From positions 28,302 through 92,301 of the forward strand of contig JAHDOV010000003.1 of NCBI GenBank assembly GCA_018434685.1: a stretch of 64,000 nucleotides of DNA. The letters run 5' to 3'. The DNA is from Deltaproteobacteria bacterium. Lineage in GTDB: Bacteria > Desulfobacterota > Desulfomonilia > UBA1062. The position numbers were made by a program, and so were the translations under genes. Of the stretch, positions 2,874 to 30,618 are shown piece by piece (within the stretch, counting starts at the first letter, position 1; every line of letters begins with the position of its first letter). The notes under the pieces were generated by a model. The model did not search any database and was not told the DNA's origin. It saw only the letters and a program-made list of their open reading frames with translations.

Positions 2874-3572
2874 GTGGTTGCCCGTGGGGAGGCATGCATG
2901 AAGAAGCGAGAGGCGTACCAGATCATCATCATGCGACCGACCGGGGAAAGACCGGTGATGACCCTGCGGGCATTCTGGGTCAGGCTGCTCATCGGATTCA
3001 TCGCGGCCTTGTGTTTCTGCCTGGTTGCGGCTGGTGTCTGGCTCGTCGATACCCGCCTGACAGTCCGTGAGCAGGGCCGGATAATCGCCATGCAGTCAGG
3101 AGAGCTCAGGGACGCCAATATTCTCCTGACCCAGAAGGACGAGGAGATCATATCGCTGAAAACGAAGATCAGCATGACCATAACCCACAACGCCCCGCCG
3201 GTTCTCGAGACAAAGCCCGTGCCCGAGTTGCACCCGCCCATCGTGGAGATCAGCGAGGTCGCTCTGTCGGGTGGCCGCCTGACCTGCAGGATCGCGAACC
3301 TTAAGGCGCAAGACTCAGGGGTTGCGCAGGGATACTTTTTTGCGGTATTCAAGGCCGGGCAGGAGTATGCGTGTTACCCATCCGCAACGCTCAGCGAGGG
3401 GATGCCTGATGTGAAAAAAATGGGGCAGCAGTTCTCGATCAAGAACTATAAGCCCATGAGCATCGAGATTCCCTCTTCCACCAGGGACTGGAAGTCTGTG
3501 ACCTTCTATGTCTTTGACGACGAAGAGAAGATGCGGCTTGCCATGCCCGTCAGGCGCGAACAGATCCAGTAG
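2874..3572 (+). CDS. Hypothetical membrane-anchored protein (single N-terminal TM helix)
   Basis: 232-aa ORF in a coding-dense context, with the hydrophobic helix LLIGFIAALCFCLVAAGVWLV. No recognisable catalytic motifs. Confidence 0.5.
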   Translation: MVARGEACMKKREAYQIIIMRPTGERPVMTLRAFWVRLLIGFIAALCFCLVAAGVWLVDTRLTVREQGRIIAMQSGELRDANILLTQKDEEIISLKTKISMTITHNAPPVLETKPVPELHPPIVEISEVALSGGRLTCRIANLKAQDSGVAQGYFFAVFKAGQEYACYPSATLSEGMPDVKKMGQQFSIKNYKPMSIEIPSSTRDWKSVTFYVFDDEEKMRLAMPVRREQIQ

Positions 3573-3626: not shown

Positions 3627-4697
3627 ATGTATTTCCTGGCAATTGAGACCTCATGTGACGAAACGGCCGCGGCAGTGGTGACCGAGAGGGGAGAAATTCT
3701 CTCGAATGTCGTGGCGAGCCAGATCGCGGACCACGCCGTATTCGGCGGGGTGGTGCCGGAGATCGCCTCGAGGCGGCATGTCGAGCTCATAGGGCCGGTG
3801 GTGACCGAGGCCCTGGCAGAAGCGGGCATAAAGCGCCACGGCCTCGGGGGAATCGCCGTAACCCAGGGCCCCGGGCTGGTGGGGGCCCTGCTCGTGGGGA
3901 TCTCCTTTGCGAAGGCGCTCGCGTGGGGATTGAACATACCGCTGTGCGGGATAAACCACCTGGAGGGGCACCTCTGCGCCGCAACGATCGGCCACGAGGT
4001 CAGATATCCCCATATCGGCATGGTGGTATCCGGCGGACATACCTCGCTCTACCGGATCGATTCACCCGAGGAGATCGTGCAGATCGGGCAGACCCTCGAT
4101 GATGCGGCAGGAGAGGCGTTTGACAAGGTGGCCAAGCTGTTGGGGCTGGGTTATCCCGGTGGGGTTGTTATCGAGAGGATCTCCAAGGGTGTGGATCACC
4201 ATGAAATCGAACTCCCCCGTCCCATGATGAATGACGAGGGCTACGATTTCAGCTTCTCCGGGCTGAAGACCGCCGTGCTCAACCGCGTTATCAGGGAGGA
4301 GGTCTTCCCCGATATGGATCTGAGGTTTTCAGGACTGCCCGGGGGAAAGACCCCTGCTCCAGGCAAGGAAGACCTTGTTCTCAAGATCGCTGCTGCATTC
4401 CAGGAGGCAGTGGTCGACGTGCTCGTTGCCAAGGCAATAAAGGCGGTGAAGGATCACCAAAGGGACCTCCTCGTGGTGGCAGGCGGGGTGGCGAGCAATA
4501 CGGCACTGAGGACGAGGCTCCAGGCAAGGGCCGAGGAAGAGGGGATCGATCTGGTCATCCCCGAGAGGAAATACTGCACCGACAATGCAGCCATGATCGG
4601 CATGGCGAGTATCAGACACTTCCGGCAGGGCCGGTATGCGCCGCTCGACATGAACGCCCTGTCGAGGTGGTATTCGATTACAAAAAACCAGGACTGA
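3627..4697 (+). CDS. tsaD: tRNA N6-adenosine threonylcarbamoyltransferase (Kae1/TsaD family)
   Basis: N-terminus LAIETSCDETAAAV and the His-pair metal site region GINHLEGHL are typical of TsaD/Gcp. Confidence 0.92.
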   Translation: MYFLAIETSCDETAAAVVTERGEILSNVVASQIADHAVFGGVVPEIASRRHVELIGPVVTEALAEAGIKRHGLGGIAVTQGPGLVGALLVGISFAKALAWGLNIPLCGINHLEGHLCAATIGHEVRYPHIGMVVSGGHTSLYRIDSPEEIVQIGQTLDDAAGEAFDKVAKLLGLGYPGGVVIERISKGVDHHEIELPRPMMNDEGYDFSFSGLKTAVLNRVIREEVFPDMDLRFSGLPGGKTPAPGKEDLVLKIAAAFQEAVVDVLVAKAIKAVKDHQRDLLVVAGGVASNTALRTRLQARAEEEGIDLVIPERKYCTDNAAMIGMASIRHFRQGRYAPLDMNALSRWYSITKNQD

Positions 4698-8639: not shown

Positions 8640-9527
8640 GTGTGCACTATGGATGGATGCCTTGATTCCTTCGTGAATCGGTATAAGATGTATCTCATGG
8701 ACCAGAAAGGCCTGTCGCCCGAGACATACCGGGCATATCTGGGCGATGTCGAGAATCTGCTCGCCTTCCTCGACAGACGCGGTGTCGACATCCCCGATCG
8801 CCTTGTCGTACGCTCATACCTGTCGAACCTCCACAGCCGCTACGACAGGTCCACCATCAACCGCAAGCTGAGCGCGATCAAGGGTTTTTTCGATTTTGTC
8901 ATGACCCAGGCCGACCTCAAGGTCAACCCCTTCTCGCACGTGAGATCGCTCAAGAAGAAAGAGGCCCTGCCCACGTTCTTAACCGCTGATGAGATGGTCG
9001 ATCTCATCGAAGCCACGGCCGACCTTCGCGACCGGGCGATCCTCGAGCTCCTCTATTCCACCGGGATCAGGGTGGGGGAGGTGGAGACCATGAACTGCAT
9101 GGACATGGACGTGAGAGCAGGCTTCATCATGGTGACCGGCAAGGGGTCCAAGCAGAGAAAGGTCCCGGTGGGGGACCGTGCCGTTGACGCTGTCCTGCGC
9201 TACCTCCACACGAGGGGCATCGACGACCCCATCTACTGCCCCGAACCGCTCTTTCTGAACACGCGGGGCAAGCGGCTCACCACCAGGAGCATCCGGCGCG
9301 TGGTAGAGAGGTGGTCCCAGTTCGTTGCGGTCAGCCGGCACGTGAGCCCGCATGTCATCCGGCATACCTTTGCAACCCACATGCTCGATGCCGGTGCAGA
9401 CCTGCGGTCGATCCAGGAGATGCTCGGCCATGCGAGCCTGTCCACGACCCAGCGGTACACGCATTTAACCCTGGACAAACTGATGGATGTGTATGATAAG
9501 GCTCATCCTAAGGCAAAGGAGGAGTGA
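8640..9527 (+). CDS. xerC: Tyrosine recombinase XerC
   Basis: C-terminal catalytic region [38 protein letters not shown] (R-H-R-Y). Conserved xerC-hslV-hslU synteny. Confidence 0.9.
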
Positions 9528-10060
9528 TGGAGATACGCGGAACCACAATACTCTGTGTGCGCAAGGCAGGGCACGTGGTGATTGCCGGCGATGGTCAGGT
9601 GACCATGAACAATACCGTGCTCAAGGCGAATGCCCGCAAGGTGAGAAAGATGCATGAAGACCAGGTGCTCGCCGGATTCGCCGGTTCGACATCCGATGCC
9701 CTGACCCTGTTCGAGCGGTTTGAAGCCAAGCTCAAGGAATACCGGGGGAATCTCACCCGTGCGGCAGTGGAGATGGGCAAGGACTGGCGAACCGACCGGG
9801 TCCTGAGGAAACTCGAGGCCCTCATGATCGTTGCCGATGCCTCGAAGACCTTTCTCCTGTCCGGCACCGGCGATGTGCTGGAGCCCGACGACGATGTGTG
9901 CGGTATCGGTTCGGGCGGAGACTATGCCGTTGCGGCTGCCAAGGCGCTGATCAGGTACACGGATTTTGGTGCCCGGGACGTGGCGGAAAAGGCCATGGGG
10001 ATTGCGTCGGATATCTGCATCTATACAAACAAAGCAATCATTTATGAGGAACTGTCATGA
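9524..10060 (+). CDS. hslV: ATP-dependent protease subunit HslV
   Basis: N-terminal Thr of TTILCVRK after Met-processing is proteasome-like. Overlaps hslU. Confidence 0.93.
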
Positions 10061-11367
10061 ATGATCTCACACCGAAACAGATAGTGGCCGAGCTCGACAA
10101 GTACATTGTCGGCCAGGACAAGGCAAAGCGTGCCGTTGCCATCTCGCTGAGAAACCGCTGGCGCCGCCAGCAGGTCAGCGACGACATGCGGGAGGATATC
10201 TACCCGAAAAACATCATCCTCATCGGCCCGACCGGGGTGGGCAAGACCGAGATAGCCCGGCGACTGGCCAAACTCGCCGATGCACCGTTTATCAAGGTGG
10301 AGGCCTCGAAGTTTACCGAGGTCGGCTATGTGGGCAGGGACGTGGAATCCATTATTCGCGATCTCATGCGGCTCGGGGTCCAGATGGTGCAGAAGGAGGA
10401 GAGCGAGAAGGTCAGGGACAAGGCCCGGGACATTGCCCGTGAGCGGGTTCTCGACACCCTTCTCCCGGTTCAGAAAGATGCACAGGCCCATTCCGACAGC
10501 AGGGAGAAACTGCGGCAGATGCTCGAGGACGGGCTGCTGGACGAGCGGATCATCGAGGTGGAGTCGCGGGAGACCTCGATGCCCTCCATCGAGATCTTCT
10601 CCGGACAGGGGCTCGAGGAGATGGGCATCGACTTCAAGGAGATGTTCTCCAACATCATGCCGAAAAAGACCCGCCGGAAAAAGATGAGCGTCAAGGATGC
10701 CCTGGAATTTCTCACCAACCAGGAGGTCGGCCGCCTGATCGATATGGAAAAGGTGACCGAAGAGGCACGGGCGCGCGTGGAAAACACCGGCATCGTGTTT
10801 ATCGATGAGCTTGACAAGGTCTCTGGCAGGGAGTCGACCCATGGCCCCGATGTCTCCCGGGAGGGCGTCCAGAGAGATCTGCTGCCCATCGTCGAGGGGA
10901 CGACGGTCAACACGAAGTTCGGACCGGTGAACACCGACCACATCCTGTTCATCGGTTCCGGGGCATTCCATGTGAGCAAGCCCTCCGACCTCATCCCGGA
11001 GATGCAGGGCCGGTTCCCCATCAGGGAAGAACTGAACCCCCTGACCCGGCAGGATTTCATCAGGATCCTGGTGGAACCCAAGAATGCACTGATAAAACAG
11101 TACGAGGCACTGCTCGCAACCGAGGGCATCAAACTCGTTTTCAGGGACGAGGCCATATCCGAGATTGCCCGTATCGCCGAGTATATCAACGACCACACGG
11201 AGAATATCGGTGCGCGCAGGCTCCATACCGTGCTCGAGAAGCTCCTGGACGAGATCTCCTTCGAGGCCAACGATCTCACCGGCGAGGTCGTGGTGGATGC
11301 CGACTACGTGAACAAGAGACTGGACCCCATCATGCAGAAGGAAGACCTGAGCAGGTATATCCTCTAG
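10057..11367 (+). CDS. hslU: ATP-dependent protease ATPase subunit HslU
   Basis: Walker [16 protein letters not shown] and the AAA+ ClpX-like architecture with an I-domain. Confidence 0.95.
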
Positions 11368-12572: not shown

Positions 12573-13154
12573 ATGAAAAAATCATTCAGCAATGAACAGG
12601 GACAGGCCCTGGTAAGGCTGGCGCGGCATACCATCGAGAAACGACTGGGGCTGGGACCCCGGGAACCCGAGACTGTTTCCGGGCAGCTCGATGACGATAT
12701 CCTGAAGGAGAAGCACGGCGTTTTTGTCACGCTCAACAAGCACGGTGATCTGCGGGGATGCATCGGGTCTCTCGAGGCACGGGAATCCGTGCTGGAGGGG
12801 GTGAAGCACAATGCCCTCAATGCAGCGTTTCACGATCCCAGGTTCAGGCCGGTGGACCGCTCCGAAGTGGGTGCCCTGGAAATCGAAGTGAGTATCCTGA
12901 CCGAGCCGGAACCGCTGGAGTACCGTGACCACAAGGATCTCCTGAAAAAACTGCGTCCCGGCCTCGACGGAGTGATTATCAGATCCGGGTATGCCGGTGC
13001 CACGTTCTTGCCCCAGGTCTGGGAGCAGTTGCCGGACGAGGAGGACTTCCTGGCCCACCTCTGCGCCAAGGCAGGGCTCCCGGCAGACGCATGGAAAACG
13101 AAGAAGCTCGAGGTCTCGACCTACCAGGTTCAATGCTTTGAAGAACCCGGATGA
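12573..13154 (+). CDS. AMMECR1-domain protein
   Basis: The motif HGVFVTLNKHGDLRGCIGSL matches the AMMECR1 family core. Confidence 0.85.
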   Translation: MKKSFSNEQGQALVRLARHTIEKRLGLGPREPETVSGQLDDDILKEKHGVFVTLNKHGDLRGCIGSLEARESVLEGVKHNALNAAFHDPRFRPVDRSEVGALEIEVSILTEPEPLEYRDHKDLLKKLRPGLDGVIIRSGYAGATFLPQVWEQLPDEEDFLAHLCAKAGLPADAWKTKKLEVSTYQVQCFEEPG

Positions 13155-13281
13155 AAAGGCGATACTGCGGGTCGTCATCGCCACCGGAAGAGCCTTCATC
13201 GTCCCCCGGCCTTATACGATCCGTGAGCCTTGGGATCTTCATAGCCGGCTCATCTATGGGGTTCTATGCCATGACATAGTT

Positions 13282-13469
13282 ATGTTACTTTCTTTGCTTG
13301 CACAAGAGAAAGTAACCAAAGAAATGCACCCCACGAAGCCGCCCTTTCGGGTGCGTTCGCTCACTCGGGAAAAATCCGTTCGCAATTAAACTCGCTCCAT
13401 TTCATTCCGCTCAGACAAAATTGCTCATTTTCCGGATTTTTCCCTCCCTCGCTCACCGGCTTCGAGGGG
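13282..13469 (+). repeat. Left terminal inverted repeat (~190 bp, hairpin-rich) of cassette
   Basis: It begins ATGTTACTTTCTTT...AGAAAGTAAC (a 10-bp-stem terminal hairpin). It contains GGGAAAAATCCG-N55-CGGATTTTTCCC and ends at ...CGGCTTCGAGGGG. The reverse-complement copy at 16300-16491 is ~80% identical. Confidence 0.85.
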
Positions 13470-13637
13470 ACCCATCCCGGGTGCTGAACCGCGACTCAAC
13501 AGGAAAATATTGGAATCTGCGTGCTCTTTGCCATAAAGAAGACAACCAACCTCTTATCAACGAACTGCACATATCCATTGGAGATCTTCAAAATAATCCG
13601 TCTTGGGAAATTGAATAGTTATCGCAGTTATATTTAC

Positions 13638-14405
13638 TTAGAAGTTTGAGATGCAAGAGGAGCGCATGGACATGACACATAGTTTTTCTCGCTTAGGGTA
13701 AGGTTGATTGTGAGCTAACATTAATTTTCTATATTTCTTTACCGTTCTAGGCGTAGCGGCAATCATTATGTATCTGTGTTTTGGGGTTAAAGGTATAAAT
13801 TTTAACTTTGGGTCATATTCACGGAGCTTTGATAAATCCCTTGTTCCAAATTTTTTCCTAACTTTCCATCCGGACATTTTCTTCCCAAGAATATAATAAT
13901 TACCCTGTCCTTTGGGATCCGTAAGACCAGTATAAATAGCATTTGATGCCTGATAAATAGTGCCAATCTCATAAAATTGAGTATCAGCATAAGCGATAAT
14001 TATTGATGATCCTAACTTATTATACATTGCCCTATTGGCTCGAGCAATTAAATGAGTTGCAGTGCATATAGGAGCATTGAAAGAACAGCCACCACGACAA
14101 AGTTGGATTATGTTACATCTGAGTTCCTTGGCTAACTGACTTATCCATCCACGATTTTTAGAAAAACATGTTGTTCCATATGAAACTACACCAAGTAATT
14201 TATCATTATGTTTCAATCCCCAATGCCATACCCCTAAACCGACATCCCCTAAATGCTCATATATCCCCATGAATTCTTGAGCCTGATTTCTGGGAATATT
14301 AACAAGAGTAGTATGACTAAGCTCAGATGAAGATAACATTATATATCTTATGTAATTTTTGGTTCTTTTCCTAGAATTAAGCATCCCAATAAAACTGTAG
14401 CCCAT
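13638..14405 (-). CDS. Hypothetical protein (255 aa; unknown function; cassette cargo gene 2)
   Basis: Long ORF in AT-rich DNA, 3' to and overlapping (or abutting, if the start is the internal Met at 14339) the 344-aa ORF. Basic C-terminus. No motif I can assign; weak Rx5H near the C-terminus. Confidence 0.5.
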   Translation of the reverse strand: MGYSFIGMLNSRKRTKNYIRYIMLSSSELSHTTLVNIPRNQAQEFMGIYEHLGDVGLGVWHWGLKHNDKLLGVVSYGTTCFSKNRGWISQLAKELRCNIIQLCRGGCSFNAPICTATHLIARANRAMYNKLGSSIIIAYADTQFYEIGTIYQASNAIYTGLTDPKGQGNYYILGKKMSGWKVRKKFGTRDLSKLREYDPKLKFIPLTPKHRYIMIAATPRTVKKYRKLMLAHNQPYPKREKLCVMSMRSSCISNF

Positions 14406-15382
14406 TTTAACAGTTCAAATAGTGATGACAATGGAAAGCTTGCTAAATCTTGCAATACAATTAAGACGGCAAGGATGAGTGCTATTATAAAAGTTTTAGA
14501 AATTAACATTTGAGATGATATTTTCAATGGATATTCCAATGAATATAGTATGTTACTCTCTTGATATACAAATACTTCGATAAAAGACCGTATATCCGAT
14601 ATCTTAAATGAGCTTTTGGGCGTAAATAAATTTTTAACGCTGTTTGTTTTAGCACCCAATACTATTCTTCCTGAGCTATGGGGAAATAACGGATTGTTAA
14701 ACTTGATTAAAATTGATTTATCAACACTGCCTTTATCAGGGTCATAATATGTAATATTAAAATCATATGTATTATCAGATTCTAAAGTAATAACATTTGA
14801 TTGCACTGGTAATAGTTCTTTCCCCTTAATTGTTTCATCTTTTAAGGATATTTTCAGTAGCGGCAAATGATCTTCTGATAATTTCTTTGTCTTTGATAAA
14901 TTTTCTACAACTATAAACCAATAACTACTGTCGAAAGATAGCTCATCGGAATATTCTTTGCCTACTTGCATATAATAACCATCGTTAATGTTACAAGGAT
15001 CTTGCCCTACTAGCTCTGGTATGCCTTTAACCGATTTCTTAAGTTGATAAGTGAACTCCTCATAATTTTCAGTCTGGCAATAATCTCCAAATGAGCATTC
15101 TACATGTAGGCGATTAGCGTTAACTTCAGAGCTTAAAACTTTTGCTTTTCTGATGGGGTAATATTTATAAGAGCCTTCATTGAATCTATCTACATAAATT
15201 ATTAAACAATCCATTCCTGATAAATCTTTTCCAACCAATTCAGAGGGGACATTTTGACCTATAGTGTAGCGAAACGTTGTAGTATAATAATTTGGAAAAG
15301 ATAATATTTTAGAAATATTATTCTTGTAAAGAGGTCTTAAAGCTGAATTAAAAACATACAGTATTTCGTTCTCCATAACCAC
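14348..15382 (-). CDS. Hypothetical protein with ~270-aa soluble N-terminal domain and two C-terminal TM helices (cassette cargo gene 1)
   Basis: 344-aa ORF with an AT-rich promoter region upstream (15383-15720). The C-terminal hydrophobic segments are FIIALILAVLIVL and WATVLLGCLILG. No recognisable catalytic motif. Confidence 0.55.
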   Translation of the reverse strand: MVMENEILYVFNSALRPLYKNNISKILSFPNYYTTTFRYTIGQNVPSELVGKDLSGMDCLIIYVDRFNEGSYKYYPIRKAKVLSSEVNANRLHVECSFGDYCQTENYEEFTYQLKKSVKGIPELVGQDPCNINDGYYMQVGKEYSDELSFDSSYWFIVVENLSKTKKLSEDHLPLLKISLKDETIKGKELLPVQSNVITLESDNTYDFNITYYDPDKGSVDKSILIKFNNPLFPHSSGRIVLGAKTNSVKNLFTPKSSFKISDIRSFIEVFVYQESNILYSLEYPLKISSQMLISKTFIIALILAVLIVLQDLASFPLSSLFELLKWATVLLGCLILGKEPKIT

Positions 15383-15723
15383 CTACAAAAAATGATTTCA
15401 TTAGAAATATAATTTTATGATATTAATTGTATAACAATAATTTGAAATGATATCTATAATTATTGAATATCTAGTGAAATATCACTCTCTTTATGATTTA
15501 ATGCTTATTCCAAGTCTATCAAAATGATAGAGCACGTGCCATACTGTGTAATCAGATTTTGATTGAGATTTTGGATACATATCACAAGGAAATCTTTCAC
15601 CCATAATATGAGTCCTTTTGATCCTATCTCCATTTCGTTCCGACTTTACTCAATTGCTCTTGATTTGGTGATACATCAGATTAAATAATGAATAATGTAA
15701 TCCGATTTTTAAGGTGAAAAAAC

Positions 15724-16113
15724 ATGAAAGAGATCGAAATAGAACTAGTTATATTTCTATTAATTATTTTATGTTCATGCACAACAATTAAAACATCACA
15801 AGAAATAATACCAAAAAACAATTTAATATATTCTGCACCATACGATAAAGTGTATAACTGCTCAATTAATGCCCTCATGGCTCTTGGATGGCAAATAACG
15901 CATTCAAATAAGGATGAGGGCTTGATCCAAGCTAAGGCACCTATGTCCTTGTGGACTTGGGGAGATCTAATTACAGTACATATTATTAAGGAATTCCCTG
16001 ATAAGGTAAGAGTAGATGTGACATCAGGCTCACCACAACAGTTTGACTGGGGTAAAAACAAGAAGAATATAGAAGCATTTTACGAAGAGTTAAAAAAGCA
16101 ATTAGAAGATTAA
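15724..16113 (+). CDS. Small secreted/lipoprotein-like hypothetical protein (cassette cargo gene 3)
   Basis: N-terminal hydrophobic helix ending ...LIILCSC (a lipobox-like Cys), then a 105-aa hydrophilic domain. Divergent from the two-gene operon. Confidence 0.45.
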   Translation: MKEIEIELVIFLLIILCSCTTIKTSQEIIPKNNLIYSAPYDKVYNCSINALMALGWQITHSNKDEGLIQAKAPMSLWTWGDLITVHIIKEFPDKVRVDVTSGSPQQFDWGKNKKNIEAFYEELKKQLED

Positions 16114-16299
16114 ATATATAATTAGCCAGCCCTAAGTGCAGTTAAAGGACCGCTTAATCAGTTGTCCGATACAACAACTACATATAACGTGCCATTATCG
16201 GGATTCGCCTGATAGTGAACATAATTTTGATATGTGACATCTTCCTCTGGTTCAAAAGTGTGTGATCGTACTGGAATAACTCGGCACCAGTCCCAATCC

Positions 16300-16491
16300 C
16301 CCCTTGAAGCCGGCGAGGGAGTGCAGGAAAAATCCGAAAAACGAGCACTTTTGTCTGAGCGCAGCACAGCTGCGCGAGTTTAAGTGCGAGCGGATTTTTC
16401 CTGTGCGAGTGAGCGTACCTGCCAAAGGCAGGCGGCTTCGCGGGGTGCATTTCTTTGGTTACTTTCTTTATGCAAGTAAAGAAAGTAACAT
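16300..16491 (-). repeat. Right terminal inverted repeat (~190 bp) of cassette
   Basis: Its reverse complement aligns with 13282-13469, with the same order of hairpins and compensatory substitutions in the stems (CAGGAAAAATCCG...CGGATTTTTCCTG versus GGGAAAAATCCG...CGGATTTTTCCC). Confidence 0.85.
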
Positions 16492-16787
16492 AAGAATATT
16501 GAATTTAATCCATCTTGCAATAAATCCAGGTCGGACCAGAATAGCATCCGTCGATAATCTCCCGCCGTGCAGTGACACAGGCTGGCGGAGTCGATCGTCC
16601 TGAACTCCGGGCTTTTCCTGAGGTTTAGGCTCTCCGGGCGTGTCTGGGCGAAAGGTGGTGGCGGAGACTGTTTCTGCCCTGATAACGGTGTGGTATAGAG
16701 CAATTCAGCGTGCCTCAACAGGTTTTGCGGTGTTGATGCAACCGCCGGTTCTATGGTAACGGATCTCTCACACTAGGAGGGAAAACA

Positions 16788-18173
16788 ATGGCTAAGAAGA
16801 TGATGGCTGCTGTCCTGATCATGTCTGTATTTCTTGGGTTTGCATGCACTGCCAAAGCGCAGGATCCTGGCCCGTACGAGGGAGACTGGGTGGCAGATGT
16901 GGTGGAAGCGGTTCTTCCCTCAGTGGTGAATATCTCCTCCATGAAGACCGTGGTGTATCAGTCGCCGCTCTTTTCCGACCCGTTTTTCCGGGAGTTCTTC
17001 GGCGGCGGGCTCGCTCCCCAGGAGCGGGTGCAGCGGGCGCTCGGTTCAGGGGTCATCATATCCGAAGACGGGTACATCATTACCAATAACCACGTCGTGG
17101 GCGGCGCCGACAAGGTGGAGGTGCGGCTTTCGGACGAACGGGTCTTCGCCGCGCAGATTATCGGCACCGACCCCAAGAGTGACGTGGCCATCATCAAGAT
17201 CGATACAGGAGTGCTTCCTGCAATCAAGGTGGGAGATTCCTCAAACCTGAGGATCGGGAGCTTCGTCCTGGCCGTGGGCAATCCCTTCGGCCTCGAACAG
17301 ACCGTGACCATGGGGATCATCAGTGCGCTGGGAAGGTCGGGGCTCGGCATCACCGACTATGAGAACTTTATCCAGACCGATGCGGCCATCAACCCCGGCA
17401 ACTCGGGCGGGGCCCTGGTGAACATGAAGGGTGAGCTCATCGGGATAAACACGGCCATCCTCTCGAGGACCGGCGGCAGCGTGGGGATCGGATTTGCCAT
17501 TCCCATCAACCTGGTCATGGGAATCAAGAAGAGCATCGAGCTCTACGGCGAAGTGGTCAGGGGATGGCTCGGCGTGACCGTGCAGGAGATCACCCCCAAG
17601 ATCGCCGAGGCCCTGGCGCTGCAGACCACGAGGGGGGTCCTGATTTCCGAGGTGACAAAGGGTTCCCCTGCCGAAAAGGGCGGCATCAGGCAGGGAGATG
17701 TCATCGTCTCCCTGGACGGAAAACCGGTACACAACTCTGCTGCCATGAGGTTCCTCGTGTCGGAACACCTCCCGGGCAGTTCCATAAAGGTGGAGGTGAT
17801 AAGGGACGGCAGGCCCAAGACGCTGAGCGTGACCATCGGGGATCTTGCAAAGGCGCAGGAACCCGAGGAGAAATTGATCATCGAGGACAACAGGTTCCTC
17901 GAGGGAGCCACGGTTGCCGACATTACCCCTGCCACCCGGGAAACCCTCGAGATCGGTGAGGAAGTCGAGGGGGTGCTCGTCATTGCGGTGAGGGACAACT
18001 CCGCAGCTGCCCGGACCGGATTGCGGCCCGGTGATGTCATTGTCCAGATCAACCGGCAGAAGACCGTAGGGCTCAAGGCATTCGAGGCCGTGCTCGAGGG
18101 GCTCACCGGAAGAAAGATGAGCATCAGCCTCTACCGGCAGGGCATGGTCATGACCCTGACCATCGTGAGATAG
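16788..18173 (+). CDS. degP: Periplasmic serine endoprotease DegP/HtrA (trypsin domain + 2 PDZ)
   Basis: Signal peptide. Catalytic triad regions HVV, D (DVAIIKI) and GNSGGAL. Two PDZ-like C-terminal repeats. Confidence 0.93.
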   Translation: MAKKMMAAVLIMSVFLGFACTAKAQDPGPYEGDWVADVVEAVLPSVVNISSMKTVVYQSPLFSDPFFREFFGGGLAPQERVQRALGSGVIISEDGYIITNNHVVGGADKVEVRLSDERVFAAQIIGTDPKSDVAIIKIDTGVLPAIKVGDSSNLRIGSFVLAVGNPFGLEQTVTMGIISALGRSGLGITDYENFIQTDAAINPGNSGGALVNMKGELIGINTAILSRTGGSVGIGFAIPINLVMGIKKSIELYGEVVRGWLGVTVQEITPKIAEALALQTTRGVLISEVTKGSPAEKGGIRQGDVIVSLDGKPVHNSAAMRFLVSEHLPGSSIKVEVIRDGRPKTLSVTIGDLAKAQEPEEKLIIEDNRFLEGATVADITPATRETLEIGEEVEGVLVIAVRDNSAAARTGLRPGDVIVQINRQKTVGLKAFEAVLEGLTGRKMSISLYRQGMVMTLTIVR

Positions 18174-30121: not shown

Positions 30122-30379
30122 GATCTTTTCTGATAACCAACCACTTCAGTCTAAAGGCTTTTTTGATTATCGATTCACCAGTCCATTTATTCGTTAATAT
30201 TTTTCCCCATCCAGGCGATACGGTCACTATACGGGCCCGGCATGAGCCCGGGCGTGTTCTTTGACAATCGAAGAAAGAGAGCCATGTGTATTCTTTGAAC
30301 CCAGAGAATAGACATGGGTAAAAGAGTGACGGGTGCATAAGGGCCGACCAGGGGCGGATAATCAACCGCCCTGCCTTTA

Positions 30380-30450
30380 GCCAAACCACAGGCGACTGTG
30401 GGACGGAAAGCCACGGGTCTGCTTTTGCAGACAGCCGGGCCGCCTCCTCA
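30380..30450 (+). promoter_or_regulatory. c-di-GMP-I (GEMM) riboswitch-type aptamer, tandem copy 1
   Basis: GCCAAACC-ACAG-GCGA-CTGT-GGGACGGAAAGCCACGGG, then the hairpin GTCTGC-TTTT-GCAGAC. It aligns with the Vc2 aptamer core GGCAAACC-[GNRA hairpin]-GGGACGCAAAGCC.CGG. Confidence 0.65.
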
Positions 30451-30518: not shown

Positions 30519-30548
30519 GAGAAGGTTTCAACAGCAGCAAGGATTCAC

Positions 30549-30618
30549 GCCAAACCAGGGGTAACCCTGGGACGGAAAGCCACGGGTCCGCTTCAGCGCG
30601 GACAGCCGGGTTGCCTGG
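30549..30618 (+). promoter_or_regulatory. c-di-GMP-I (GEMM) riboswitch-type aptamer, tandem copy 3 (27 nt upstream of start codon region)
   Basis: GCCAAACC-AGGG-GTAA-CCCT-GGGACGGAAAGCCACGGG, then GTCCGC-TTCAGC-GCGGAC. The GNRA loops vary between copies (GCGA/GCAA/GTAA) while the stems co-vary. Confidence 0.65.

Follow-up and report, generated by a model that had tools for sequence, protein, structure and literature searches.

Mom of bacteriophage Mu, which is regarded as a phage anti-restriction tool, was recently shown to transfer glycine from charged tRNA, i.e., Gly-tRNA(Gly), to the N6 of adenine in double-stranded DNA, where the adduct rearranges to N6-carbamoylmethyl-deoxyadenosine (6-NcmdA), and its activity depends on residues R111, S124, D149, R151, and Y159 (PMC13219725). 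Adenine methyltransferases occur in operons with PUA-like (ASCH) domains (PMC4738411), PUA-like sensors fused to nucleases act as modification-dependent restriction enzymes (PMC12707154), and fusions of Mom to restriction-fold nucleases have been proposed to constitute a momylation-based restriction-modification system in jumbo phages (PMC7824862). TwoAYGGAY, in turn, was described as a candidate RNA without an assigned function (Weinberg et al. 2010, PMC2864571) and was later proposed to bind CsrA (PMC4333381). Here, we describe a locus that brings these subjects together, in a stretch of 64,000 nucleotides from a Deltaproteobacteria bacterium of the Desulfomonilia (assembly GCA_018434685.1, contig JAHDOV010000003.1, positions 28,302 to 92,301; the whole stretch is called the window below, and positions refer to it). 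At this locus, a Mom-family gene and the gene of a predicted membrane-bound partner lie on an AT-rich island between two inverted copies (the arms) of a structured repeat that appears to be kin to TwoAYGGAY.

We favor, with a probability of roughly 60%, the interpretation that the island carries a writer-reader conflict module that was horizontally acquired and sits inside a resident repeat pair, with arms and island being unrelated to each other. A preliminary description of the locus, made from the sequence, had instead viewed the arms as the terminal inverted repeats (TIRs) of the cargo itself and had recognized no family among its three open reading frames (ORFs).

Arms and island differ in composition and distribution

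The features on which the argument turns are these:

13282..13469, minus strand: left arm, with the hairpin P1 at 13284-13316, then the linker CAAAGAAATGCACCCC and a hairpin-rich body; 81% identical to the right arm by blastn
16300..16491, plus strand: right arm, with P1 at 16458-16489; blastn and repeat finder
13493..16276, no strand: low-GC foreign island between the arm tails, from composition and GC content at third codon positions (GC3)
13638..14339, minus strand: Mom-family GNAT, 233 aa (255 aa if the start is at 14405); Pfam PF25680, PHROG 1384
14348..15376, minus strand: partner protein, 342 aa, with a PUA-like N-domain (about 1-170) and an Ig-like domain (about 170-290), both as modeled, and two transmembrane helices (about 294-334)

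The arms were described as inverted repeats of ~190 bp and ~80% identity that share an outward-facing terminal palindrome, and both points hold: blastn aligns them at 81% identity over 193 columns (E 4e-47), a repeat finder resolves the match into three blocks of 78-97% identity, and P1 lies at the outer end of each. The similarity extends weakly for ~23 nt farther inward in the blastn alignment, to 13492 and 16277, and the arm bodies are 74% identical to each other. No third copy was found in the 64-kb window; a candidate decayed third arm inside the cargo (15628-15659) was rejected as chance, its local alignment score being only ~2 standard deviations (sd) above shuffles.

The AT-rich interior is foreign in composition, as had been proposed. 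At 33.0% GC, vs. 56.7% for the window, the island is the lowest-GC 2.8-kb stretch of the window (mean 56.7%, sd 4.7%, i.e., ~5 sd below), and the GC3 of the three cargo genes is 25-30%, vs. 71-82% for AMMECR1, htrA, and hslU. The arm bodies, in contrast to the 33% of the cargo, have a host-like GC content of 54-58%. The three ORFs are present as described, although two of them start slightly later (342 and 233 aa) in the gene calls of a public assembly of the same organism, which we adopted. At 90% identity, neither AMMECR1 and HslU nor the two proteins of the pair have cluster mates from another organism in the protein collection searched.

We fetched 160 other loci with Mom genes, 80 of them metagenomic and 80 on viral contigs (78 distinct). 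None of the 80 metagenomic loci has arms based on local blastn and motif search, and none of the 80 viral loci, which were not searched locally, coincides with a match to a P1 20-mer across the whole viral collection. The fetched loci with the Mom-partner pair are thus all without arms, and the boundary zones (13470-13640 and 16110-16300) show no similarity to the fetched loci either. The size of the pair also fits an insertion. Measured from P1 to P1, the arm pair of the window spans 3206 nt; without 13493-16276 it would be 422 nt long, nearly the length of the tail-to-tail pairs found elsewhere (440-560 nt), which hold no genes. The absence of arms from the other Mom loci, the GC mismatch, and the occurrence of the repeat across phyla (below) all argue against arms that belong to the cargo as its own TIRs.

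A structured repeat found across phyla

P1 is a near-invariant hairpin with a 13-6-13 geometry, GTTACTTTCTTTG-CTTGCA-CAAAGAAAGTAAC, and is followed by a third CAAAGAAA and then by a closing helix around variable hairpins. The preliminary description had suggested checking whether the repeat is multicopy, and elsewhere it is. A 23-mer of P1 plus linker occurs at 16 loci in GTDB species representatives, among Thermodesulfobacteriota, Desulfobulbia (3 copies), Rudaea sp. 3F27F6 (5), Halothiobacillaceae (2), and other Gammaproteobacteria, while blastn located 524 repeat places in 147 plasmid or chromid records. The latter include Ralstonia (~4 on each of the megaplasmids of the R. solanacearum group), Burkholderia sp. 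THE68 (19), Caballeronia (18), Ilyobacter polytropus of the Fusobacteriota (7), as well as Variovorax and Comamonas. Other genomes hold 3-19 copies, and the repeat matches listed are all in unannotated intergenic DNA. This is, in spirit, the outcome that the preliminary description had named as fatal to its reading, a widespread intergenic repeat with no tie to these genes, with the difference that it comes from copies in other genomes. No copy of the P1 hairpin was found in E. coli genomes or in the phage database, and a full-text literature search with its sequence returned no relevant paper.

Several observations bear on the structure of the arms. The arm bodies follow the GC content of their hosts, being AT-rich in Ilyobacter and GC-rich in Ralstonia, and in every case a closing helix encloses one or several long hairpins. 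Fold z-scores are -4.2 for the left arm (plus strand), -7.6 for the right arm, and -9.9 in a third calculation. Compensatory changes, which fall in P1 and the closing helix, include, in Ralstonia, GTTAC/GTAAC to CCTAC/GTAGG and, in a second Desulfobulbia type, TTTC/GAAA to TTCT/AGAA. When the arms were aligned with MAFFT and analyzed with RNAalifold, P1 and the closing helix were the only elements recovered, as the variable hairpins could not be aligned.

The two strands of an arm are not equivalent. The minus strand of the left arm, which has P1 at its 3' end, folds 13 kcal/mol better than the plus strand, while for the right arm the plus strand is the better one; over all arms compared, the strand with P1 at its 3' end was the more stable in 29 of 29, by 1-28 kcal/mol and usually with more G-U pairs. 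Every non-Watson-Crick pair read in P1 is a C-A on the strand with P1 at its 5' end and hence a G-T wobble on the opposite strand, and U-A to U-G changes were counted in the alignment of P1 and closing helix. This stability bias, together with the polarity of the wobble pairs, points to a single-stranded form, either RNA or single-stranded DNA, of defined polarity.

Copies occur in three arrangements: solo (L001, in our locus numbering, and Ilyobacter), head-to-head with P1 inward (Desulfobulbia, Halothiobacillaceae), and tail-to-tail with P1 outward (Rudaea, Ralstonia, Burkholderia, and one viral contig). In viral contigs, the P1 20-mer has 61 exact matches, mostly chance matches in contigs of 20-35% GC; about 8 of the 61 come with a real hairpin, including one tail-to-tail pair (L131).

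A few copies have noteworthy surroundings. Modules are nested in a further inverted repeat, GGTTCATCACGGA...TCCGTGATGAACC, at L004 6850-7320, L005 950-1420, L012 7200-7700, and L001 1990-2370, which suggests that a second repeat layer carries modules in metagenome-assembled genomes (MAGs) of Desulfobulbia and Thermodesulfobacteriota. The Rudaea pairs (L006, L013, L014) are flanked by ATTCCCGC...GCGGGAAT hairpins, and one of them has a (GCTCTTTTT)n microsatellite at its center (L013 4110-4210). In Burkholderia sp. THE68 (L102), the interior of the 500-nt unit is unrelated to the window arms, and the DNA outside P1, at 2406-2511 on the minus and 2994-3098 on the plus strand, resembles the Rfam small RNA Bp1_Cand684 below threshold (38 and 36 vs. 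44 bits).

Relation to TwoAYGGAY and other repeat classes

The link to a described RNA class comes from a Halothiobacillaceae MAG (L008), whose arm bodies match the TwoAYGGAY model RF01731 at 62.1 and 59.1 bits (gathering score 43) in a head-to-head pair at 3823-3977 (plus) and 4301-4428 (minus). The matching strand is the one inferred independently from folding, and P1 lies ~30 nt downstream of the model, that is, outside of what Rfam describes. P1, the linker, and the closing helix are common to these arms and those of the window. Unlike TwoAYGGAY, however, the window arms have no two AYGGAY loops; their long central hairpin is capped by UGUCUGAGC...GCGAGUUU, a motif common to the Desulfobulbia and Ralstonia copies. 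Judging from these shared and differing parts, the window arms appear to be a sister variant of TwoAYGGAY in a wider family whose common chassis consists of P1, the linker, and the closing helix. As far as cmscan can tell, Rfam 15 has no entry for this broader family.

The repeats also resemble miniature inverted-repeat transposable elements (MITEs), doublets of repetitive extragenic palindromes (REPINs), and bacterial interspersed mosaic elements (BIMEs) in being multicopy, intergenic, hairpin-forming, and often arranged as inverted doublets of a few hundred nucleotides. They differ from these in exceeding REPINs in size and in having a 45-nt terminus that hardly changes from phylum to phylum; neither an associated transposase nor a REP-associated tyrosine transposase (RAYT) was identified, and a target-site duplication was not seen. 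Integron attC sites were also considered and rejected; the P1 ends, GTTACTT and AAGTAAC, do not fit GTTRRRY, and there is no intI at 9-21 kb.

A divergent Mom subfamily

One of the ORFs held to be without a recognizable family does belong to one. The 233/255-aa protein matches Pfam PF25680 at 60.4 bits (cut-off 27.1; E 2.5e-16) and PHROG 1384, "Mom-like DNA modification protein" (E 1.5e-24), and PF25680 is present in all of its 177 homologues in a large protein collection (177/177). A profile of the subfamily matches the sequence of the Mu Mom crystal structure 8bv8 at E 8.5e-6 (8bv8 is a delta-10 construct, and its chain numbers are offset by 9).

The window protein is only ~20-25% identical to Mu Mom, yet the two share the GNAT-fold family, above the Pfam cut-off, and the C-terminal region with its HTH-like (helix-turn-helix-like) insertion aligns. 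Among the essential residues, the equivalents of R111 and Y159 are an invariant Arg and an invariant Tyr in the window subfamily, that of D149 is Asp, and that of S124 is Ser in 27 of 29 aligned sequences, with Thr in the window protein and in its closest homologue, P0004. The window ORF thus represents a divergent Mom subfamily in which the catalytic machinery appears to be largely preserved. By analogy with Mu Mom, the window protein is predicted to modify the N6 of adenine in DNA. The subfamily further differs from Mu Mom in that it is found mostly outside viral contigs and is encoded beside a membrane PUA-like partner, as opposed to phage Mom genes, which are without one.

A partner linked to Mom and anchored in the membrane

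For the 342-aa partner, the earlier statement that no family is recognizable stands: it matches no Pfam, NCBIfam, PADLOC, or PHROG family, and 60 relatives checked have no Pfam or PADLOC match either. The partner nevertheless has a large family of its own, with 806 cluster representatives at E <= 1e-3 and 160 at E <= 1e-30 in an exhaustive profile search of 1.84 billion representatives, nearly all of 340-400 aa.

The linkage of this family to Mom is strong and specific. In 34 of the 41 metagenomic loci with a Mom at least ~33% identical to that of the window, Mom has a partner homologue as its immediate neighbor on the same strand, mostly upstream of it but in some cases downstream; the other seven are mostly on contigs too short to hold a partner gene. 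None of the 39 metagenomic loci with a more distant, phage-type Mom has the partner. It is present in two of the 78 distinct viral Mom loci, and those two have the closest Mom. Mom and partner are a conserved two-gene module, mainly cellular, that is distinct from the solo Mom of phages. A gap of 8 nt separates their genes in the window.

An AlphaFold2 model of the partner, based on a five-sequence alignment (predicted local distance difference test, pLDDT, 74; predicted template modeling score, pTM, 0.72), shows an N-terminal alpha/beta domain, a beta-sandwich at ~170-290, and helices at 294-310 and 316-334, the latter corresponding to the two C-terminal transmembrane helices noted in the preliminary description. 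The modeled N-domain has the PUA-like beta-barrel fold. Its scores are 7.8, 7.7, and 7.5 with the EVE proteins 1wmm, 2ar1, and 2gbs, 7.4 with THYN1 bound to 5-methylcytosine (5mC) DNA, 7.6 with the YTH protein Mmi1 and 5.8-5.5 with YTHDC1, YTHDC2, and YTHDF1, 6.3 and 5.9 with the YTH-like N-domains of archaeal McrB, and 6.0 both with the EVE-HNH enzyme VcaM4I and with ASCH. Foldseek returned no PDB match at E <= 0.001; its best matches (best E 0.0094) were the Lon-N and cereblon LON domains, which are of the same superfold as PUA-like domains. At the sequence level, neither Pfam (for the protein and the 60 relatives) nor a profile run against PDB sequences gave a match to EVE, YTH, or ASCH, and the N-domain is therefore best described as resembling PUA-like domains in fold rather than as a member of one of these families.

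W153, Y135, Y70, R64, and R76, which are invariant in the partner family, are candidate residues of a binding pocket (aromatic cage) for a flipped modified base. Most family members end in a basic GKK, in place of which the window protein has a basic C-terminus with GKEPKIT. N-domain and C-terminus are probably both cytoplasmic, since a helical hairpin with a basic C-terminus has this topology under the positive-inside rule.

A writer-reader model and its place among known systems

Under the interpretation that we favor, the arms would be two diverged copies of a resident, host-adapted structured repeat module of ~190 nt, and the horizontally acquired, AT-rich island of 2.8 kb would have landed in the center of the pair. 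The GNAT of the Mom subfamily would add an acyl or carbamoylmethyl-type adduct to the N6 of adenine in DNA, and the cytoplasmic PUA-like domain of the partner would bind the modified base or the modified nucleic acid, tethered to the inner membrane by the Ig-like domain and the two-helix membrane hairpin. The pair would then act as a writer-plus-reader conflict module in phage defense or exclusion, with the membrane hairpin possibly serving as effector or as anchor.

A role in conflict, be it defense or exclusion, is the most likely function of the pair. The preliminary description had already considered defense-type cargo, and this remains plausible given a Mom-like modifier, a linked membrane partner, and the neighbors found elsewhere. 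These neighbors include tyrosine integrases, large serine recombinases, ImmA/IrrE-HTH pairs, a protein with an HSDR_N nuclease domain, DruA, a PD-T4-6 kinase, mad6, and PD-Lambda-2_B, plus many housekeeping genes. The pattern, as read from these loci, appears to be that of a small mobile island that often lands in areas of defense genes and mobile elements. PADLOC-DB 2.0.0 has no match for the three cargo proteins or for the 60 partner homologues.

Among described systems, the modification-dependent restriction enzymes with PUA-superfamily sensors (EVE-HNH VcaM4I, YTH-McrB, PD-T4-3) offer a close comparison for the partner. Unlike these, the partner has no nuclease or NTPase domain, carries an Ig-like domain and two transmembrane helices in that place, shows no sequence match to EVE, YTH, or ASCH models, and is encoded with a writer rather than alone. 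Abortive-infection effectors built from a sensor domain and transmembrane helices are found in the cyclic-oligonucleotide-based antiphage signaling system (CBASS), e.g., Cap15, and among the transmembrane effectors of Pycsar. The locus described here differs in that it has no nucleotide cyclase, and what the partner presumably senses would be a modified base or nucleic acid. Whether the partner disrupts the membrane, as effectors might, is conjecture.

Weighing the explanations

Could arms and cargo nonetheless form one non-autonomous, TIR-bounded element that is moved by a transposase or recombinase acting in trans at the P1 hairpins? The inverted arms with their conserved outer termini would fit, as would the ~500-nt MITE-like units with unrelated interiors that the same termini bound in Burkholderia, the multicopy nature of the repeat in several genomes, and a public short-read assembly of the same organism, in which 13593-16321 forms a separate contig of 2729 bp and the sequence is broken at both arms. 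We consider such an element improbable, however. As the preliminary description had noticed, terminal inverted repeats come here without a target-site duplication, none being present at the flanks ...CATGACATAG|TTATGTTAC and GTAACATAA|GAATATTG, nor do the flanks CATGACATAG and GAATATTGAA share a direct repeat; and its observation that the island encodes no transposase, integrase, or recombinase was borne out by the ORF list, while a cognate transposase was not found. The arms are just 81% identical and host-like in GC against a cargo of 33%, and they are missing from all 160 other Mom loci, including those with the pair (the viral ones being covered by the P1 20-mer). Further, the hairpin elsewhere faces inward or is nested in other inverted repeats, so it is not always a terminus. 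An invertible, phase-variable segment, with the P1 palindromes as crossover sites of a site-specific recombinase, is less probable still. It is true that the 13-6-13 geometry with an asymmetric 6-nt center matches that of tyrosine-recombinase core sites, that the two sites are inversely oriented, and that the assembly broke at the arms, although these breaks are ambiguous, as they fit repeats or hairpins and say nothing decisive about inversion. There is no adjacent recombinase: xerC, 3.7 kb away, stands in one row with hslV and hslU (window 8640-11367), and a member of this housekeeping row is unlikely to serve the cassette. The arrangement xerC-hslV-hslU is that of the codV-clpQ-clpY operon of B. 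subtilis. A flip would leave the cargo promoters unchanged, since both transcription units and the promoter region lie inside; the same hairpins occur elsewhere singly and in both relative orientations; and the polarity of the P1 mismatches, together with the 29/29 fold bias, indicates a single-stranded hairpin rather than a duplex site.

Other explanations concern the cargo. It might be a toxin-antidote or self-regulating module in which the Mom-like enzyme is toxic and its PUA-like partner erases the adduct or keeps it in check, in analogy to YqfB, an ASCH protein that acts as an N4-acylcytidine amidohydrolase. Mom is toxic on artificial expression and ASCH proteins can be amidohydrolases, but EVE and YTH readers outscore ASCH in the fold comparison of the partner, an antidote would need neither a membrane tether nor an Ig-like domain, and the lone intact partner at L020 (below), while fitting an antitoxin remnant, fits other models too; we thus judge this explanation unlikely. 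Equally doubtful is that the island is a fragment of a decayed prophage or mobile element in which Mom served anti-restriction, as in Mu, and the partner superinfection exclusion. Anti-restriction in phages is the role for which Mom is best known, the pair is present on two distinct viral contigs, and integrases, serine recombinases, and ImmA/IrrE-HTH pairs lie near some loci. On the other hand, only these 2 of the 78 distinct viral loci with Mom have the partner, the subfamily linked to it is common in metagenome contigs and often flanked by housekeeping genes, and no phage structural or replication gene is in or beside the island.

The writer-reader interpretation has its own difficulties. 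On the side of the arms, the first 50 nt (P1, then CAAAGAAATGCACCCC) average 88% identity across lineages and the next 150 nt 52%, and since the loci were found with a probe from the P1 region, the apparent conservation of P1 is partly by construction; the left half of P1, outside the probe, is conserved too. The window arms have no match to RF01731 on 13150-16650 even at E <= 10, so their kinship with TwoAYGGAY would rest on the shared P1, linker, and closing helix. The window pair is the only one of ~8 tail-to-tail pairs seen that holds cargo. As the collections contain no close relative, the order of events, with the pair first and the island second, is suggested by composition and size. 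On the side of the cargo, R151, which is essential in Mu Mom, aligns to a variable position in the window subfamily, and, to our knowledge, known modification-dependent restriction does not pair a reader with its own writer. Moreover, L020 encodes an intact partner homologue of 346 aa (259-1299; 47% identity) without a Mom gene. (The gene of this homologue forms a low-GC islet with a truncated nitroreductase gene on one side and recC on the other, and its public gene call starts too late.)

A broader version of the writer-reader interpretation would have the pair be an immune system of two genes, its partner family comprising over 800 diverged lineages, in which the partner reads N6-adenine hypermodification and acts at the membrane, and would have the arms be cross-phylum, RNA-like repeats of a class wider than TwoAYGGAY whose pair centers can receive foreign DNA. 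We offer this version tentatively, as possible but rather unlikely to hold in full.

Lipoprotein gene, transcription, and flanking genes

The remaining features of the locus are as follows:

15377..15723, no strand: AT-rich divergent intergenic region, 27% GC, with promoter-like sites on both strands (consensus matches only)
15724..16113, plus strand: predicted lipoprotein, 129 aa, with a signal peptide and a lipobox-like LCSC
12573..13154, plus strand: AMMECR1-family gene, native left flank; Pfam PF01871 on an identical product, GC3 71%
16788..18173, plus strand: htrA/degP-type serine protease gene, native right flank; assigned from sequence (trypsin-like core and PDZ regions), GC3 79%

The 129-aa ORF is lipoprotein-like, as it had been called, and has family matches below threshold only, in keeping with the earlier failure to place it. 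One weak relative (26% identity over 82 aa) is near the pair in L055. The gene is a passenger and not a conserved part of the module. L055 (3115-5927) is among the closest pair loci fetched, its partner being 41% identical to that of the window and its Mom 53% over the 107 residues present; the weak lipoprotein homologue and the HSDR_N nuclease-domain protein lie just upstream of the partner there, and accessory genes may accordingly be loosely associated with the pair.

The Mom operon (minus strand) points to the left arm, the lipoprotein gene (plus strand) to the right arm, and each cargo transcript would hold its arm in the more stable orientation with P1 last. A scan of 13100-16850 found no intrinsic terminator in the coding part of the island, and its single terminator-like site is inside the right arm on the minus strand. 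Since both units read outward into the arms in the sense orientation of the latter, the arms may now serve the island as structured 3' ends or insulators.

Elsewhere in the window, tandem c-di-GMP-I riboswitch aptamers (RF01051) are present on the plus strand at 30370-30447 and 30539-30618 (54.6 and 65.6 bits).

Implications

The repeat described here poses a question of its own: a 45-nt hairpin, near-identical from Fusobacteriota to Proteobacteria, sits on structured bodies that vary, and neither Rfam nor the literature searched offers an explanation. The arms may extend the unexplained TwoAYGGAY RNA class. For annotation, the locus illustrates that a foreign island may be flanked by inverted repeats that are not its own termini. 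Since the partner family is without annotation, a testable function for it would fill a gap. Finally, a cellular Mom subfamily that is linked to a membrane partner shaped like a reader suggests that Mom, beyond its role as an anti-restriction tool of phages, has a second use, in a writer-reader system that would act in conflict or in epigenetics.

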